Source: a virus (taxonomy: Duplodnaviria; Caudoviricetes). From it: DNA of 24,786 nucleotides. Within the stretch, counting starts at the first letter, position 1, and each line of letters begins with the position of its first letter. Location: positions 1 to 24,786 of IMG/VR virus record IMGVR_UViG_3300016484_000582; one strand, written 5' to 3'. Below the pieces are notes generated by a model. It was not told where the DNA came from, ran no database searches, and worked only from the letters and a program-made list of their open reading frames with translations. Of this stretch, positions 711-9,376 are shown one piece after another. A program made the position numbers and the translations under genes.

Positions 711-929
711 TTAAATCCTCCCTTCGTCGTCGTTAGCGTATGGAAACTTTACCACTGGCGGGTAGATATAATCATGCGCGGCAAGCCAAGCATCGCCACT
801 ATCGCAAGTGCTCCGTGATGCCTGCACTAGACGGCCAAGCAAGGCTTTTGCTCGTTCAAGTTCCGTTCTCAATTTTGCCTGTTCGCGTAAAGCAAATTCC
901 AGTTTAATTTCTGCATTTTGATGGTTCAT
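711..929 (-). CDS. hypothetical phage protein with a coiled-coil N-terminus (72 aa)
   Basis: ORF with AAGGAG SD; ends ...NDDEGRI. Confidence 0.7.
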   Translation of the reverse strand: MNHQNAEIKLEFALREQAKLRTELERAKALLGRLVQASRSTCDSGDAWLAAHDYIYPPVVKFPYANDDEGRI

Positions 930-1776: not shown

Positions 1777-2655
1777 TTACTCCTCTGGTTGATTGATGGG
1801 TTGAACTTGATTGTCTTGTAATTTTTGCAATGATGTAAAAAATTTTGTATCTGGTATGGTGATTAACTTGTAAAATGTATCAGCTGTTACGTCGGAGACT
1901 TCGATACCCTCTTTTGTTTTGAATTTATCAAAAAATGCTTTTTGAATTTCCGGCGTTGCGCCAGTAAAGGCCGCATACAATTTCAACTTATCATGAGATG
2001 TTATCTCCACAGGTTTCTGGACTGGCTTAGGGGCTTCATGATTTACTTTATTGCCGTCAATATCATCACCAGTACTGATATTAAGCAGGGCACACAAGGC
2101 AACACGGCGTAAATACGATACGGTACTCGATATAGCTTGTATATCAGTTTTATTAGAATTCCCCTTAGTACCTGCACCGTCCAATGGCATTGTTAAGTCG
2201 CTATATTCAGAGTGACCGCGGCTGTGTAAAAGCTCCACCCTAACCGTAACCGATGTTTCAGTCTGATTAATAATTTTATGCTTCGTTGCAAAATTATATC
2301 TACCAAGTACTGGGTCTATCTCTTTGTTAATATCCTCTAGCTTTGCATAATTAGATTTTGTGTGCGGGTTTTTGTGATTTTTAATCACAACCGGAAGGTG
2401 TGGCTTCATTTTTACAAAGTCTTTTGTAAATTCCAACTTTGCAATCCGATCTTTTTCAGCATTACGCATCCGGATAAGCCCTTCGAGGACAGCTACATTC
2501 CCCCTTTCCGCTGCTTGCAGAATTGCATTTGTAATAACATTATTACTGACAGCAACGGCTTTTGTCTCATGCTCGTGAGCCAATACTTGATAATGATGCG
2601 CGTCTTGATCGGCGTTGTTGCGATCAATCTCATCCTGTTCATCTTCGTAAGACAT
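1777..2655 (-). CDS. erf: ERF-family single-strand annealing recombinase
   Basis: KSNYAKLEDI, LLHSRGHSE and QAISSTVSYLRRVALCALLNISTGDDIDG match the ERF signature (GSxxTYxRRYxL...DDxDG). Confidence 0.85.
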   Translation of the reverse strand: MSYEDEQDEIDRNNADQDAHHYQVLAHEHETKAVAVSNNVITNAILQAAERGNVAVLEGLIRMRNAEKDRIAKLEFTKDFVKMKPHLPVVIKNHKNPHTKSNYAKLEDINKEIDPVLGRYNFATKHKIINQTETSVTVRVELLHSRGHSEYSDLTMPLDGAGTKGNSNKTDIQAISSTVSYLRRVALCALLNISTGDDIDGNKVNHEAPKPVQKPVEITSHDKLKLYAAFTGATPEIQKAFFDKFKTKEGIEVSDVTADTFYKLITIPDTKFFTSLQKLQDNQVQPINQPEE

Positions 2656-2685
2656 TTTGTTTATCCTTTCTACGTGGTTTAAAAT

Positions 2686-3030
2686 TTACAGTGGTCCCCC
2701 GCCCAGAAAAGTGGGCAGGATTTGGGGCAGGTATCCTTTAATCTCAAGAATCGCAATGATACTCCCCATAATCATTGCTACAGCAGCAGCAAAATATAAG
2801 CCAAGATTGCTACGCTTGCGCTCCAACGCTTTGTTGTCGGCCATAAGATAATCCGAATATCCACTATGTTTATTTGGGAGTATTGTATCGACCCAGTTTT
2901 GCAAGTTGTTTGCAGCTTCTTGCGCACTTTTTTCTGCCTCGATCATCTCAAAACCAGCTTGTATCAGTGTTGGTTTTGTTCCAGAGGCTTCGGCATCCCA
3001 GCCGAAACGCTTAGGATTGTTGGTGTTCAT
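2686..3030 (-). CDS. hypothetical protein with one C-terminal transmembrane segment
   Basis: Start moved to ATG 3030 (MNTNNPKRFG), which overlaps the upstream stop (ATGA) and has a GGAG SD. Hydrophobic stretch LGLYFAAAVAMIMGSIIAIL. Confidence 0.65.
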   Translation of the reverse strand: MNTNNPKRFGWDAEASGTKPTLIQAGFEMIEAEKSAQEAANNLQNWVDTILPNKHSGYSDYLMADNKALERKRSNLGLYFAAAVAMIMGSIIAILEIKGYLPQILPTFLGGGPL

Positions 3031-3224
3031 GACTCTACTCCTAATTTGCAGGCTATTTTTGACAGTTTCCAATTAATATTTATTAATTTTAACTCAGTAT
3101 CCATTCTCATATTATGAGAAAGGTCTTTATCAAGTAAAGACTGCAAAAATTCACGAACGCAGTAAAGACCGTGAATATAATATCCAAATTTTTTATACCC
3201 AGCGATCATCTCTTGAGTGGTCAT
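3027..3224 (-). CDS. hypothetical protein, first gene of the leftward operon (65 aa)
   Basis: ORF with a strong AGAAAGGAG SD; no HTH or peptidase S24 motif visible. Confidence 0.65.
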   Translation of the reverse strand: MTTQEMIAGYKKFGYYIHGLYCVREFLQSLLDKDLSHNMRMDTELKLININWKLSKIACKLGVES

Positions 3225-3248
3225 ATTGTGGTCTCCTTTCTGAAAATA

Positions 3249-3276
3249 AATATAGCATACTTTTTTAGCTGTGCAA
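3249..3276 (-). promoter_or_regulatory. possible leftward sigma70 promoter
   Basis: TTGCAC (3276-3271) N16 TATATT (3254-3249), with an upstream A-tract. Confidence 0.4.
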
Positions 3277-3290
3277 CAGTTTTTTTTATT

Positions 3291-3319
3291 TTGACGAAAA
3301 AAAAGTTTTGCTGTACTAT
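3291..3319 (+). promoter_or_regulatory. rightward sigma70 promoter
   Basis: TTGACG (3291-3296) N17 TACTAT (3314-3319), followed by AGGAGG SD and ATG 3340. Confidence 0.65.
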
Positions 3320-3339
3320 AACAAATAGGAGGCTATTTT

Positions 3340-3522
3340 ATGAAACTTGAGGCATATCTCAAAAAAGAAAGGATGACGCAAAGGGAATTTGCAAAATTAA
3401 TCAATGTTGACGAGTCAACATTAAGCCACTGGCTAACAGGTTTACATCGTCCCTCTTGGCCTGCGATGTTTAAAATTGTTGATATTACCAATGGTCAAGT
3501 TAAACCCAACGATTTTTTTTGA
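3340..3522 (+). CDS. Cro-like XRE-family HTH regulator
   Basis: MKLEAYLKKERMTQREFAKLINVDESTLSHWLTGLHRPS...TNGQVKPNDF is a typical phage Cro/XRE sequence. Confidence 0.85.
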   Translation: MKLEAYLKKERMTQREFAKLINVDESTLSHWLTGLHRPSWPAMFKIVDITNGQVKPNDFF

Positions 3523-3534
3523 AAAGGAATCAAC

Positions 3535-3801
3535 ATGACACAGTGGCAACCTATTGAGACTGCACCGAAAGATGGATCAAAAATAATCCTATTTTATATA
3601 GATCGCAAAGGTAACAAGCGGACGGTTTTTGGACGGTGGATGACTGATGAACAAGCGGAAGATTGCGACCGCGATGGCGTAGGCCTTAAAGCTGGCTGGT
3701 ACGAAACCATCGAAAACTGGGGAGATTACTCCTTCGTAGCAATCTCTGGAGGTGAGCCAACCCAGTGGATGCCCCTTTTTTGGAAGGAGGAAGGAGAGTA
3801 A
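3535..3801 (+). CDS. DUF551-like phage protein, copy 1
   Basis: N-terminal WQPIETAPKDG and C-terminal PTQWMPL motifs. Confidence 0.8.
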   Translation: MTQWQPIETAPKDGSKIILFYIDRKGNKRTVFGRWMTDEQAEDCDRDGVGLKAGWYETIENWGDYSFVAISGGEPTQWMPLFWKEEGE

Positions 3802-3803
3802 CC

Positions 3804-4521: not shown

Positions 4522-4866
4522 ATGAATTACTACCCCATTACGCCAGTTCCTAAACCAAGCATGACCCACGCCGATAGATGGAAAAACCGCCCCTGCGTGC
4601 TGCGGTATTTTGCCTTCAAGGACGAAGTAAGACTTCGCAAGGTTACTTTTGATTCCGGGAGTATTATTACATTTCATCTTCCCATGCCTAATTCGTGGAG
4701 CGCAAAGAAAAAAGCAACCATGAATGGCAAGCCGCATAAGCAAACACCTGATTTTGACAATCTCATGAAGGCTTTATCCGACAGCGTTTATAAGGATGAT
4801 TCACACATCAGCAGCATCAGCATTAGAAAGATATGGGCGTATGAGGGTGGTATAACAATAGAGTAG
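4522..4866 (+). CDS. rusA: RusA-family Holliday junction resolvase
   Basis: PDFDNLMKALSD...DDSHI catalytic motifs. Start moved to ATG 4522 after the AAGGAG SD. Confidence 0.85.
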   Translation: MNYYPITPVPKPSMTHADRWKNRPCVLRYFAFKDEVRLRKVTFDSGSIITFHLPMPNSWSAKKKATMNGKPHKQTPDFDNLMKALSDSVYKDDSHISSISIRKIWAYEGGITIE

Positions 4867-4873
4867 AATTAAC

Positions 4874-4902
4874 TTGATTTTAACGATAGATTAAAATAGT
4901 AT
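4874..4902 (+). promoter_or_regulatory. putative promoter of small RNA 1
   Basis: TTGATT N17 TAGTAT; the predicted +1 falls near the first G of the RNA closing stem. Confidence 0.55.
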
Positions 4903-4909
4903 GAACATT

Positions 4910-4978
4910 GGGGCTAGGGAGTGGTTGCCCGAAAGCCGTCAGAATTATCCTTTCACTGACCAGCACGCCCCTTTTTTT
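4910..4978 (+). ncRNA. putative C4/CI-like antisense small RNA 1 (three-way junction)
   Basis: P1 GGGGC/GCCCC, TA linker, P2 GGG/CCC with loop AGTGGTTG, GAAA linker, P3 GTCAG/CTGAC with loop AATTATCCTTTCA, then T7. Both loops are complementary to the repeated leaders at 2660-2680 and 8066-9339. Confidence 0.7.
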
Positions 4979-4991
4979 ATCCATAATTAAC

Positions 4992-5020
4992 TTGATTTTA
5001 ACCCACGCTTGGTATAGGGT
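4992..5020 (+). promoter_or_regulatory. putative promoter of small RNA 2 / replication gene
   Basis: TTGATT N17 TAGGGT, with the same geometry as unit 1. Confidence 0.5.
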
Positions 5021-5026
5021 TTAACC

Positions 5027-5094
5027 GTGGCTAGGTATTGCAAGACCGAAAGCCCGATCTTTCCCTCGTCGGATGGGTTGCCACATATTTTTTT
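5027..5094 (+). ncRNA. putative small RNA 2, structural paralogue of RNA 1
   Basis: P1 GTGGC/GCCAC, TA, P2 GGT/ACC with loop ATTGCAAG, GAAA, P3 CCGA/TCGG with loop TCTTTCCCTCG, then ATA-T7. Compensatory changes against RNA 1 occur in P1 and P2. Confidence 0.65.
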
Positions 5095-5116
5095 GACGAG
5101 GAACGACGGGGTTATT

Positions 5117-6010
5117 ATGTCTATTGAAATCATGTCGCTTGTTTTCAAGGCGGCAATTCCCACAACACAAAAATTTGTGCTGATTGCCATTGCCGACCAT
5201 TGTAATCAAGACGGCAAAGGTTGGCCGTCTATTCAGCGGATCGCATCCCACACCTCTTTACAAACACGGACAGTGTACCGAGCCATTCATGACCTAGAGA
5301 CATGGGGCTTTTTGTCCAAAAGTCACAATCCACACTCCAAATCAACTTTATACACTATAAACAAAGCTGTATTGCTAAAACATCTGACTAATGGTCAGAT
5401 GACACACGATCACCTGACTGACGATCACCCTGACACACGATCACCCTCACCCCTGACTGACGATCACCCTACCCCTGACACACGATCAGGGGTACCCCTG
5501 ACTGACGATCACCCTAACCATAATATTAACCATAAAGAACCACCAAAAGAACCGTCATTAGCAAAATTGCCTTTTGACGATCCGGTTATCGAAAAGCCTC
5601 CCAAGGTGAAAAAGCCTAGGGCAATGCAAATGCCCAAAGGGTGGAAGCCGCACGATGCTCACCGGGCTAAGTGTGCTTCCTACGGGCTTGATCCGGAAGA
5701 CCTAGCCGAAAAGTTTGAAAACTATCACGCATCAAAGGGAAGTTTGTTTGTTGATTGGGACAGGGCTTTTTTCACTTGGATAGGAAACGCTAAAGAATTC
5801 AACCAAAACCACAGAGGATCGAACAATGAAAACTATCGGAAACCTAGCAACAAAGCTCCTACAATCGACGGAGAAACAGGAGAAATCATCAATGACCAGC
5901 TTTCCGGCAACTCTTTTGGAAACAATCCCAAACGAGACCAAGGAATGGATAAAGCGCAACGAATCTACGCTGGTGCAATGCACCTCTATGAAAGCAAGAT
6001 ACGGCAGTAA
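5117..6010 (+). CDS. phage replication initiator with N-terminal winged HTH (HTH_36-like)
   Basis: MSIEIMSLVF...KFVLIAIADHCNQDGKGWPSIQRIA...RTVYRAIHDLE, internal iterons, and C-terminal EKFENYH...VDWDRAFFTWI. Start moved to ATG 5117. Confidence 0.85.
   Translation: MSIEIMSLVFKAAIPTTQKFVLIAIADHCNQDGKGWPSIQRIASHTSLQTRTVYRAIHDLETWGFLSKSHNPHSKSTLYTINKAVLLKHLTNGQMTHDHLTDDHPDTRSPSPLTDDHPTPDTRSGVPLTDDHPNHNINHKEPPKEPSLAKLPFDDPVIEKPPKVKKPRAMQMPKGWKPHDAHRAKCASYGLDPEDLAEKFENYHASKGSLFVDWDRAFFTWIGNAKEFNQNHRGSNNENYRKPSNKAPTIDGETGEIINDQLSGNSFGNNPKRDQGMDKAQRIYAGAMHLYESKIRQ
5400..5513 (+). repeat. six 15-bp iterons, probable replication origin inside the initiator gene
   Basis: TGAC(AC/TG)ACGATCA(CC/GG) starting at 5400, 5415, 5431, 5454, 5476 and 5499, followed by an A-rich tract. 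Same layout as lambda ori within O. Confidence 0.85.
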
Positions 6011-6392
6011 ATTCAATGAGAATCGCGGCGCATGGGAGTTTGATGTAGTCGGTGAAGAGTTGCCTAGCATTGTGATTGAAAATCTTCCCGAAGGCACAAA
6101 AAGCGAGATCATGAAATCGGCAGGTCCGGCAATCATCATAGGGTTGCTTACATCGCTAACTATTATCAAAAAAAGCACAAGGCCAGAATCAGAAATGATT
6201 TTTATCATGCAAGAGTTAGCATCTGATTTCACAGGGATTCCGGTGATCGCTGCACAGTTGGCTTTTGAAAGCCTTAAGCGCGATCCGTCCCCTTGGTTCC
6301 CGGATTATCACGTTATCGTAGAGCGGTTTAACGACTTCACGAAACGGGTTGGTCTTATCAAAGACGCTTATTTGATTGAAGAAAGGAAATAG
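5826..6392 (+). CDS. hypothetical protein in the helicase-loader (lambda P) position
   Basis: 188-aa ORF with AGAGGA SD, overlapping the initiator 3' end. Function inferred from position only. Confidence 0.6.
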   Translation: MKTIGNLATKLLQSTEKQEKSSMTSFPATLLETIPNETKEWIKRNESTLVQCTSMKARYGSKFNENRGAWEFDVVGEELPSIVIENLPEGTKSEIMKSAGPAIIIGLLTSLTIIKKSTRPESEMIFIMQELASDFTGIPVIAAQLAFESLKRDPSPWFPDYHVIVERFNDFTKRVGLIKDAYLIEERK

Positions 6393-6955: not shown

Positions 6956-6988
6956 CCAAGTTTTTTAACTAAGAGAAAGGATTTAACC

Positions 6989-7399
6989 ATGTTTGAGCCA
7001 CAAATGACAGAACCAACAGACGAGTTTACTCTCTTGAAAGTTATCGCAGAAATCCGCCAGAAAACTGGTATAGGCGATAAAGTAATGCTGGCTGATTTAG
7101 CCGGTGTTCTGGCTGGGCTTATCCAAAACGGAGAATCGGCGATCGAGACCAATAAACAGCTTGTGAAGAAATTGAAAAAAGCAGAAGAATCCCTAGAAGA
7201 GGGTGTTGATTTGGTTTTTTATTTAGGAGAAAAGCTTCCAAGTTGGTCAGATGACACACCACTCGGCGGCATTGAGGAACGGTTTGAGAATTTATCAGAT
7301 TGGGCTTTAAACTGGATGGGCTTTCAAGGTGAAGGATTAAAACCGTCGCTAAGGCCGTTTTTATTGACACCAGACCACCCTAACCATATGCTCGGCTAG
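6989..7399 (+). CDS. hypothetical protein (136 aa)
   Basis: AGAAAGGA SD; contains IAEIRQKTGIGDKVMLADL. Confidence 0.75.
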   Translation: MFEPQMTEPTDEFTLLKVIAEIRQKTGIGDKVMLADLAGVLAGLIQNGESAIETNKQLVKKLKKAEESLEEGVDLVFYLGEKLPSWSDDTPLGGIEERFENLSDWALNWMGFQGEGLKPSLRPFLLTPDHPNHMLG

Positions 7400-7423
7400 G
7401 GTAGTAGCCAAAAGGATAGAAAG

Positions 7424-7642: not shown

Positions 7643-8068
7643 TTAAATCTGTTTGGTGCAGATTTCATGGCTGTGAGCTTGTCGTTGTTTTCGAGCCTTG
7701 TTTTCAGCTTCTGCACTGCCCCATGCAAAAATAGCTATCATTGTAAAAATTGAAAAAACTACAAAATTTATAAAAACAAATGTCGATAGTTCTTTGTGAA
7801 AATTACTAATTTTGTATTTATTATCATCCGCCCATAGACAGTACGGTAAAATTGGTATGCTTAAGCCAATAAAAAGAATGGACAGTAGATTTATTTGTTC
7901 CGTAACCAATAAATAAATCGGGAAAGCAGCAGATAAAAACAAAGATATTCCAATTAAAGTATCTGCGTGCCACAAATAATCTTTAACAAAGAAAACAATG
8001 TTTTTTAATGTCCATAAAAATATAATGGAAAGCACTGTTATTGTTACAATTGTAATTGCTGTTTGCAT
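7643..8068 (-). CDS. membrane protein with about four TM segments, last gene of the inverted island
   Basis: Four hydrophobic stretches; preceded by the repeated leader AAAGGATTAACATCATG. Confidence 0.75.
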   Translation of the reverse strand: MQTAITIVTITVLSIIFLWTLKNIVFFVKDYLWHADTLIGISLFLSAAFPIYLLVTEQINLLSILFIGLSIPILPYCLWADDNKYKISNFHKELSTFVFINFVVFSIFTMIAIFAWGSAEAENKARKQRQAHSHEICTKQI

Positions 8069-8072
8069 GATG

Positions 8073-8228
8073 TTAATCCTTTAATTTGTGGGTTAATTTA
8101 TACTCGGCCATGCAAACTGCAACGTATGAGGCTACCTTTGCCGCTACGCATGGAGGCAGGATATAGTCCATGCGTTTATAGCCTAGCTTTTTCAGTTTTG
8201 CTTTATACCGCTGTTGTTTAGTTTGCAT
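8073..8228 (-). CDS. small basic protein (51 aa), possible ribbon-helix-type DNA-binding protein
   Basis: Not in the ORF track. MQTKQQRYKAKLKKLGYKRMDYILPPCVAAKVASYVAVCMAEYKLTHKLKD; start overlaps the upstream ORF end and the stop lies in the next leader. Confidence 0.55.
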   Translation of the reverse strand: MQTKQQRYKAKLKKLGYKRMDYILPPCVAAKVASYVAVCMAEYKLTHKLKD

Positions 8229-8298
8229 AAAGCACCGTTGCTGTTAAGATGAGCGTAAAATTAAGAATTGAGGCCATGATGTGAATTGCGAGGCGCAT
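8218..8298 (-). CDS. 26-aa hydrophobic peptide
   Basis: Not in the ORF track. MRLAIHIMASILNFTLILTATVLYAN, preceded by the leader CAACCACAGAAAGGATTACTACTATG. Confidence 0.55.
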   Translation of the reverse strand: MRLAIHIMASILNFTLILTATVLYAN

Positions 8299-8358
8299 AG
8301 TAGTAATCCTTTCTGTGGTTGTGAAATGATAGAGTACAGAGTGAAGGTTAAGATGGTG

Positions 8359-8604
8359 TTATCCGATACAGATTTCTTTTCCATCAATTTCAAGGTCGAT
8401 TGTTAAATCGTCTCCCCAGTTGGAAAACTGTTTAATTATTTCGGCTTTGTCCTTTTCGGATAGGGTAACATAATAATGATAGTGGCCTAACGTTCTTTTA
8501 GTGTTTGTTTTTTTAAAAGATATTTTGCCTAAAACATTAACGATTTCCGCGTTCTGTATGATTTCTAGGGCTTCTTTGATAGGGTAAGATTTGAATACGG
8601 TCAT
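8359..8604 (-). CDS. hypothetical protein (81 aa), inverted island
   Basis: ORF preceded by ACCACGAAAGGATTAACATCATG. Confidence 0.8.
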   Translation of the reverse strand: MTVFKSYPIKEALEIIQNAEIVNVLGKISFKKTNTKRTLGHYHYYVTLSEKDKAEIIKQFSNWGDDLTIDLEIDGKEICIG

Positions 8605-8634
8605 GATGTTAATCCTTTCGTGGTATGAGGCATA

Positions 8635-8680
8635 ATTGCACCATGCTACACCCCCCGGGGGAGGTGTAGGGTGCTACAAT
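8635..8680. other. GC-rich bulged intergenic hairpin
   Basis: GCACC-atg-CTACACC-CCCC/GGGG-ga-GGTGTAG-GGTGC; no adjacent U-tract on either strand. Confidence 0.75.
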
Positions 8681-8789
8681 CTAAGCTAGCCAAGAATACC
8701 GTTGATATATATTCGTGCGATCGAAACCCATAACGATAGCTAAATAACCGGGGCGATTATCCAAATAGGCTAATCTGTGCTTTTAACAT
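8681..8789 (-). pseudogene. island slot with a full leader but only a 10-codon ORF; possible frameshifted 35-aa gene
   Basis: ATG 8789 reads MLKAQISLFG*. Removing one A from TTAAAAG gives MLKHRLAYLDNRPGYLAIVMGFDRTNIYQRYSWLA*, ending at 8681. Confidence 0.4.
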
Positions 8790-8825
8790 GATGTTAATCC
8801 TTTCGTGGTTGGTTGCGTTATTTAA

Positions 8826-9053
8826 TTAATCTTTTATGGCTTCGTATGCGTATTCATCACTGCCGTTGCAGACACAAATTTTAAAGCGATTTACCCTTTC
8901 ATTTTTGCCTTTTTGACCGCGCGCCGCGTCATCGCGATAGCTTTTTAAAATGTCTTTTAATCCGTACATGGCTTTAAAATAAGAAACATTTGTGTACCCG
9001 GTTTTGCTGTATTTGCCGTGAACCCCGATTTTATAAATCGTGTACGTTGTCAT
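8826..9053 (-). CDS. hypothetical basic protein (75 aa), inverted island
   Basis: Start moved to ATG 9053 (MTTYTIYKIG), after the leader CAACCACACGAAAGGATAAACACCATG. Confidence 0.8.
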   Translation of the reverse strand: MTTYTIYKIGVHGKYSKTGYTNVSYFKAMYGLKDILKSYRDDAARGQKGKNERVNRFKICVCNGSDEYAYEAIKD

Positions 9054-9094
9054 GGTGTTTATCCTTTCGTGTGGTTGCTTATGAGTGTAATTCT

Positions 9095-9125
9095 GAGGCC
9101 AGCTTATTCGCTGGCCTCGCTTTTT
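9095..9125 (+). terminator. hairpin GAGGCCAGC/GCTGGCCTC followed by GC-T5 on the + strand
   Basis: Perfect 9-bp stem with a 6-nt loop; the T-tract is on the strand opposite the island genes. Confidence 0.55.
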
Positions 9126-9312
9126 AACTTGCCAACACATGCCACTGATTTAACTCCTGCTTTGTTAGGAGTAAAATGCCCATAGGGTGTTTGATATTGT
9201 AAGCTTTGATTTTTTTCACGATTTTCTGTGTCTCTTCCCAGATCATATCCCCTGTGTTTGTTGGGTGAAAAAAAGCTGCGTTGTAAGCGTTGAGTAATTT
9301 CTTTGCGGTCAT
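9124..9312 (-). CDS. hypothetical protein (62 aa), first gene of the inverted island
   Basis: ORF preceded by CAACCGCACGAAAGGATTAACATCATG and a strong promoter. Confidence 0.8.
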   Translation of the reverse strand: MTAKKLLNAYNAAFFHPTNTGDMIWEETQKIVKKIKAYNIKHPMGILLLTKQELNQWHVLAS

Positions 9313-9347
9313 GATGTTAATCCTTTCGTGCGGTTGGTTATGAAAGC

Positions 9348-9376
9348 AGTATATTGGTATCCGGGATACTTGTCAA
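9348..9376 (-). promoter_or_regulatory. near-consensus sigma70 promoter with a palindromic operator in the spacer
   Basis: TTGACA (9376-9371) N17 TATACT (9353-9348). Inverted repeat GTATCC-G-GGATAC at 9357-9369. Upstream A-tract. Confidence 0.85.

Follow-up and report, generated by a model that had tools for sequence, protein, structure and literature searches.

RNA1, a small structured element of a P22-like podophage, is by its sequence a divergent copy of the int-alpA-type scaffold, though it falls below Rfam detection and lacks both traits of the family. The best single explanation for it is trans-acting two-loop pairing, with trans repression itself about evenly balanced. RNA1 would be an orphaned free small RNA, both of whose loops pair with leaders carrying CAACCAC plus an SD site, blocking translation of a distant gene island and of erf. 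We give this full reading an even chance of being right.

The window is the whole stretch of DNA analyzed, 24,786 nt of a virus record that is 68% complete. Sequencing runs containing it are mostly freshwater metagenomes. The phage carries erf, a Cro-like HTH gene, a GapR-like gene, RusA, an O-like initiator, terminase, portal and coat genes; the GapR-like gene points to a host among the alphaproteobacteria. At 3027-3522, and in the complete relatives G001 and G005, gene order is lambdoid and a Cro-like gene is present, with the opposite CI-type repressor absent. Neither a tyrosine integrase nor an S24 repressor was found in these two complete relatives, and no antirepressor among the 41 source-phage proteins scanned. 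The left arm (942-1484, -) encodes a putative Imm5-like immunity protein (PF21805, E 6e-11). RNA1 lies among the following features:

4522-4866 (+): RusA-like resolvase, immediately 5' of RNA1
4867-4902 (+): promoter-like stretch of RNA1, putatively active (9/12 consensus match at 4869-4897)
4910-4978 (+): RNA1, divergent int-alpA-type three-way junction plus T7 (fold; alignment with 44 relatives)
4920-4927 (+): RNA1 P2 loop, unable to self-pair; complementary to CAACCAC(U) 5' of the SD
4943-4955 (+): RNA1 P3 loop, 7-nt anti-SD core plus AU extension; naturally variable
5027-5084 (+): RNA2, canonical copy whose P2 loop is palindromic; leader of the replication initiator (T7 at 5088-5094)
5095-5101 and 5105-5111 (+): two cis targets of the RNA2 P3 loop, the second at the initiator RBS
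5117-6010 (+): O-like replication initiator (PHROG 1032, E 5e-29)

RNA1 has the architecture of int-alpA: a three-way junction joined by UA and GAAA linkers, in which P1 (4910-4914/4967-4971), P2 and P3 are paired. A first, sequence-only reading of this DNA had proposed the fold, the two loop words and seven target sites, and all nine of the strings it located are in place as quoted. Both loops are open in the predicted fold, at opening costs of 0.2 and 0.3 kcal/mol. Stability is no greater than that of shuffles (z -0.42; 64/200), so we rejected it as proof of the three-way junction, and it is the relatives that back the fold instead. RNA1 scores 28.2 bits with its own covariance model, the training set of which includes RNA1 itself. 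Rfam gives no match. The C4 and c4-2 models, suggested earlier as a cmscan check, match nothing in the window or in 10 relatives; we therefore rejected membership of RNA1 in C4 (RF01695) or c4-2, and the scaffold is of int-alpA type. The promoter claimed for RNA1 is promoter-like at best. The first 18 nt of that stretch (4867-4884) recur at 4985-5002, and the same 18-mer lies 5' of the RNA in the relatives L001 and L185. On the 3' side come T7 and then the next promoter, with neither a downstream target nor a gene. We also rejected a minus-strand decoy reading of RNA1: the linkers, the T run and the promoter-like stretch all indicate the plus strand.

The int-alpA motif reportedly originates from a survey of 224 motifs, and we know of no tested function for it. 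Its scaffold runs P1, UA, short P2, GAAA, P3, P1'. Pattern scans of IMG/VR yielded 74 distinct candidates, of which 58 were kept (46 clusters); the other 16 had non-canonical junctions or long loops and were set aside. When 10 relatives were compared with Rfam, five passed the int-alpA (RF02996) cut-off and eight matched at E 0.1 or better. The family alignment is 94.2% paired, with 130 two-sided changes against 41.6 in shuffled alignments, figures inflated by the choice of members by pattern and by P1/P3 pairing. The third P2 pair, which was not used as a filter, is paired in 42/45. Two traits come from this sample of 46 and not from the curated int-alpA definition. The P3 loop has a best downstream site of at least 6 nt in 29/46 members (6.5% of cross pairs) and two downstream sites of at least 5 nt in 25/46 (5.5% of cross pairs). 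The P2 loop contains a palindrome of at least 4 in 39/46, compared to a shuffle mean of 14.0 and a maximum of 25 in 5000. On the simplest reading of these traits, we infer that an int-alpA-type leader would dimerize via P2, its two P3 loops covering the two sites. Separately, in one clade (L001, L088, L092, L102, L183, L184, L185, L239, L326, L334 and L342), three palindromic P2 loop types are reassorted independently of the P3 loop and the initiator gene, like specificity groups.

RNA2, absent from the sequence-only reading, is the downstream one of two tandem scaffold copies and is preceded by the repeat of the 18-nt promoter-like stretch. It scores 18.5 bits with Rfam int-alpA (E 0.14; cut-off 35.8) and 50.1 bits with its own model. 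It has the P3-complementary downstream sites of the family, and the RNA2-type P3 loop and its cis sites change together in L001, L183, L184 and L185. The loops of RNA1 and RNA2 do not pair with each other (-0.2). The RNA2 P3 loop also pairs with leftward leaders at 88-103 and 714-737 (-) at -17.9 and -14.5, compared to -12.2 for its own cis leader; these leaders belong to minus-strand genes starting near 83 and at 709, and lie inside ORF ends reading N(D)DEGRI-stop, a repeated module junction. The initiator gene contains iteron-like direct repeats (5412-5517), and its ORF overlaps ORF 5826-6392 by 185 nt in a different frame.

RNA1 departs from its family in both traits: it has neither a P3-complementary downstream site nor a self-complementary P2 loop. 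Self-pairing of its P2 loop costs +3.0 kcal/mol against a family median of -7.9; none of the 46 relatives is as weak, and RNA1 is the sole one of 47 whose P2 loop cannot self-pair. Four of the last five letters differ from the nearest P2 type. In its P3 arm and junction, RNA1 is similar to the RNA of L185; there, a P3 loop sharing the RNA1 core has a different initiator leader as its cis partner. The close relatives L001, L134, L183, L184 and L185 have a single RNA at the RNA1/RNA2 position. An orphan upstream RNA with a new downstream RNA occurs in four records of another lineage (L088, L102, L222/L307 and L239/L332), which makes module swapping a route to orphan RNAs. In the L088 tandem, the orphan and a divergent second RNA lie at 8563-8627 and about 8433-8497 (-); the second RNA of such tandems has two downstream sites of its own and no Rfam match. 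Against initiator leaders from six other loci, L088-type orphans pair at about -16 kcal/mol, compared to -7.6 for their own downstream sequence, and to judge from this pairing may be an exclusion device against other phages. A relaxed scaffold scan of 381 loci, not exhaustive since it missed the divergent second RNA of L088, found two copies in the source window alone.

Such orphans are the starting point for an alternative that we judge unlikely, though a real contender: RNA1 could be a relic of a replication-module swap, at most a terminator behind rusA, and its loop match could be chance. The P3 loop would then be an inherited anti-SD loop, and the P2 word a drifted, G/U-rich one that fits A/C-rich leaders. 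Module-swap orphans do exist in other records, but those retain palindromic P2 loops. The stems of RNA1 are also intact, and the P2 loop stands four changes away from the nearest type, with an exact match of 7-8 nt beside an SD site as the outcome, neither of which a relic leads one to expect.

The preferred reading, trans-acting pairing, rests on the following sites:

1777-2655 (-): erf (ERF, PF04404)
2661-2679 (-): bipartite site of 6+10 nt in the erf leader
8073-8094 (-): degenerate site of 4+7 nt, rank 19/44 and indistinguishable from other leaders
8304-8321 (-): bipartite site of 7+8 nt, leader of the conserved 26-aa ORF 8218-8298
8609-8624 (-): partial site of 5+8 nt, leader of ORF 8359-8604 (string and duplex energy)
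8794-8811 (-): bipartite site of 7+8 nt before the 10-codon ORF 8757-8789, probably a cassette remnant
9059-9077 (-): best bipartite site, 7+10 nt, leader of the 75-aa ORF 8826-9053 (string and duplex energy)
9317-9336 (-): bipartite site with one mismatch, promoter-proximal leader, ORF 9124-9312
9348-9376 (-): strong leftward island promoter (11/12 consensus, best of 27 matches)

The sites lie 2-4 kb from RNA1 on the opposite strand, with 0 to 4 nt between their two parts. Five are strong, one is partial and one is weak. All are where the sequence-only reading had put them, but its count of at least seven genes is overstated, as it takes in ORFs of 10 and 26 codons. GTGGTTG occurs six times on the plus strand, three of them at claimed leaders, and never on the minus strand. 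As far as sequence can tell, RNA1 would set two loops against a bipartite target (RBS plus upstream part) in the manner of C4. The order of the two words is swapped between RNA and target; this rules out simple copying, as had been argued, but the pairing would consist of two separate short helices and no continuous duplex.

The repeated leader is the 5' untranslated region belonging to the leftward promoter at 9348-9376. The island (7643-9376) is a cassette array whose genes are skipped or joined, in natural contigs, at the repeated leader (joints 8313-8624, 8313-9356 and 9073-9356). Cassette copying explains the repetition, and since the leaders were copied from one cassette-junction leader, the island sites are not independent and amount to about one site. 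This copying counts in favor of the relic alternative. Pfam gave no match for six island proteins scanned, and homolog searches of ORFs 8826-9053 and 6989-7399 found no function.

To assess the loop-leader match, we compared GUGGUUG with other 7-mers. Over the 14-nt stretches that precede the seven SD sites, 3 of 16,384 7-mers complement as well; for a single leader, 8 of 16,384 do. When 7-mers are restricted to G and U, 2/128 are as good (single leader 5/128), and among permutations of the RNA1 P2 word 1/35 is as good (single leader 3/35). The match noticed earlier is thus beyond chance over all 7-mers but much weaker at equal base bias, and the composition-matched result (2-5 in 128) again favors a relic. 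Ordering 44 leaders by summed duplex energy puts six of the seven sites in places 1-6. With opening costs included, the top five of 32 are the leaders of 9053, 9312, 8789, erf and 8298, and that of 8604 falls to ninth. None of 37 family loci has at least two bipartite trans leaders for its own RNA, compared to 8/56 leaders for RNA1 at the same lenient rule. In L088, which lacks RNA1, 9/52 leaders match at this rule; A/C-rich leaders with AAAGGA are general in the phage group, as a relic would allow. The motif also occurs without RNA1, preceding a gene with up to 8+10 nt in relatives that have no RNA1 in the record (including the complete G001), which points the same way.

The P3 loop shares 7 nt with the 16S 3' tail, which bears out the caveat, raised with the first reading, that this word is also the anti-SD. 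A 16S origin of the P2 word was rejected (3 nt in common with the one 16S tail compared). Taken alone, the P3 loop matches 16/56 leaders over at least 6 nt. RNA1 might therefore act through P3 alone, as a broad SD mask or a mimic of the 16S tail, with the P2 loop idle; we consider this very improbable. The identity of the core with the 16S tail and the number of matching leaders speak for it. It leaves the P2 match and the erosion of a site at 6966-6973 (below) unexplained, however, and a 7-bp SD mask would strike host and late genes too.

Natural variation bears on both loops. RNA1 is covered in 4/4 sequencing runs from four studies. The allele in 2/4 runs has 4944 A>C, 4947 A>C and 4965 A>G plus a C inserted after 4946; by inspection, it has lost the P3 AU extension and is identical to the 16S 3' tail over 9 nt, up from 7. 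The variant P3 loop pairs best with other leaders (3804 and 709). Both the longer identity and this change of partners would fit action through P3 alone. Neither a compensating leader change nor a P2-loop difference is found among the 40 of 411 differences listed, and a P3 loop that varies with no compensation among them is what a relic would show. The P2 loop of RNA1 appears conserved in natural populations and the P3 extension does not, so the UUA extension, offered earlier as a specificity element, does not hold up in natural variants. At 9331, C>T in X2, X3 and X4 (3/4 runs) turns the first island leader (9317-9336) into an exact P2 match. As a side observation, the variant P3 loop pairs at -22.1 with the purine-rich leader 3769-3803 of the rightward ORF 3804.

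Orthologous island leaders were compared between the source phage and relatives without RNA1. One leader pairs at -21.2 in the source phage and at -15.7 and -12.6 in the relatives; a second gives -17.6 against -9.4 to -11.3, and a third -12.6 against -11.9 (marginal). A further site lies in a rightward leader:

6966-6973 (+): P2 target in eroded form, leader of rightward ORF 6989-7399; site kept in RNA1-less relatives

This site is present in L001, L134, L183 and L184, and in L185 before an inserted gene. Compared to three relatives, 4/8 site positions differ and 1-2/27 flanking positions do (Fisher p 0.006-0.016); compared to a fourth, p is 0.095. The erosion is a single event, noticed post hoc. 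Selective loss of the site in the rightward ortholog is unexpected for a relic. Further along, a small hairpin at 7394-7409, the start of which resembles the 5' end of the int-alpA-type family, precedes the MLTEA gene and is kept in five relatives.

The eroded site suggests a different use of RNA1, mainly as a weapon against the rightward gene of co-infecting relatives, with the home-island match secondary. The best P2 matches (8/8) are indeed in the relatives L185, L184 and L001 and not in the source window, the home ortholog is eroded, and the L088-type orphan pairs better with other loci than with its own downstream sequence. But the phage's own island and erf leaders match equally well and better than orthologs elsewhere, no function was found for the target gene, and complete relatives lack an integrase and an S24 repressor, which leaves a resident immune state unsupported. 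We rate this possibility as improbable.

Under the preferred reading, in which RNA1 pairs in trans with the island and erf leaders, a new promoter-RNA-initiator module would have landed behind an older one, whose RNA thereby lost its gene. The P3 loop of the old RNA would by then have had an anti-SD core, as that of L185 does; afterwards the P2 loop would have switched from self-pairing to target-pairing. The P3 loop would mask the SD and the P2 loop give specificity just upstream, as described for C4. The linkers have lengths that suit a family C junction; there P2 would tilt toward P3, setting the loops side by side, and the rule behind this placement is taken from the part of PMC3575829 that treats such junctions. 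RNA1 would accumulate after the strong leftward promoter fires, as its promoter stretch is common with that of the initiator. The predicted outcome is a delayed shut-off of the island genes and erf, and of like leaders in co-infecting relatives. The sequence-only reading had already cast RNA1 as a switch acting in trans. That proposal gains from the loss of the self-pairing loop, the loss of the cis target and the eroded rightward site; it loses the repetition of the leader, which is cassette copying, and the C4 affiliation, the scaffold being that of int-alpA.

A broader version goes further and is correspondingly doubtful, if still worth stating: a self-dimerizing cis leader was duplicated and became a single-molecule trans regulator of early genes and of competing relatives. 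The dimerizing loop would have become a second target-binding loop within one 65-nt RNA. Genes slotted into the cassette array would inherit the site and hence the shut-off, and RNA1 would also strike competing relatives, the home ortholog having escaped. Pattern scans found no RNA1 homolog with different loops matching different leaders, which counts against the preferred reading. The promoter-plus-scaffold pattern gave 9 stretches in IMG/VR and 9 in metagenomes, the tandem pattern 85 and the leader pattern 0; the T-tailed pattern gave 0 in IMG/VR and 11 in genomes, none scored by the RNA's own model. Records of the window itself, or ones very near it, may be missing from these scans.

The locus offers a natural pair, a canonical cis copy and an orphan with altered loops. 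If trans repression is real, a few changes in its loops would have turned a cis leader into a small RNA serving a whole regulon, and early genes would be shut off by RNA in a phage group whose complete members have no integrase or classical repressor. The two-loop scaffold would then be a compact, programmable means of blocking translation. In the literature searched, which left most subscription papers outside, we came across no int-alpA copy described as acting in trans and no paper matching palindromic-loop phage leaders.

The portion of PMC4825925 on Gifsy-1 IsrK describes a phage leader RNA that acts in trans in its short, terminated form. By analogy, RNA1 or RNA2 as free copies may have a precedent in IsrK. 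IsrK differs in acting on its own long isoform and in activating translation, and it has no Rfam match in the source phage. With int-alpA (RF02996), RNA1 has the scaffold in common and RNA2 shows the cis arrangement of the family, whereas RNA1 has no Rfam match, no downstream target or gene and no self-pairing P2, and its loops match distant leaders on the opposite strand. The closest functional likeness may be to P1/P7 C4 and P4 CI RNA, short structured RNAs with one loop over the RBS and a specificity loop upstream. The C4 section of PMC5320573 places loop b' over the RBS and lets loop a' give upstream specificity, and the lines on P4 CI RNA in PMC4825925 have it pair with two sequences. RNase P releases C4, which represses an antirepressor operon, from a precursor, whereas RNA1 carries a promoter-like start of its own together with a T run; the targets of CI flank CI, whereas those proposed for RNA1 are 2-4 kb away on the opposite strand.
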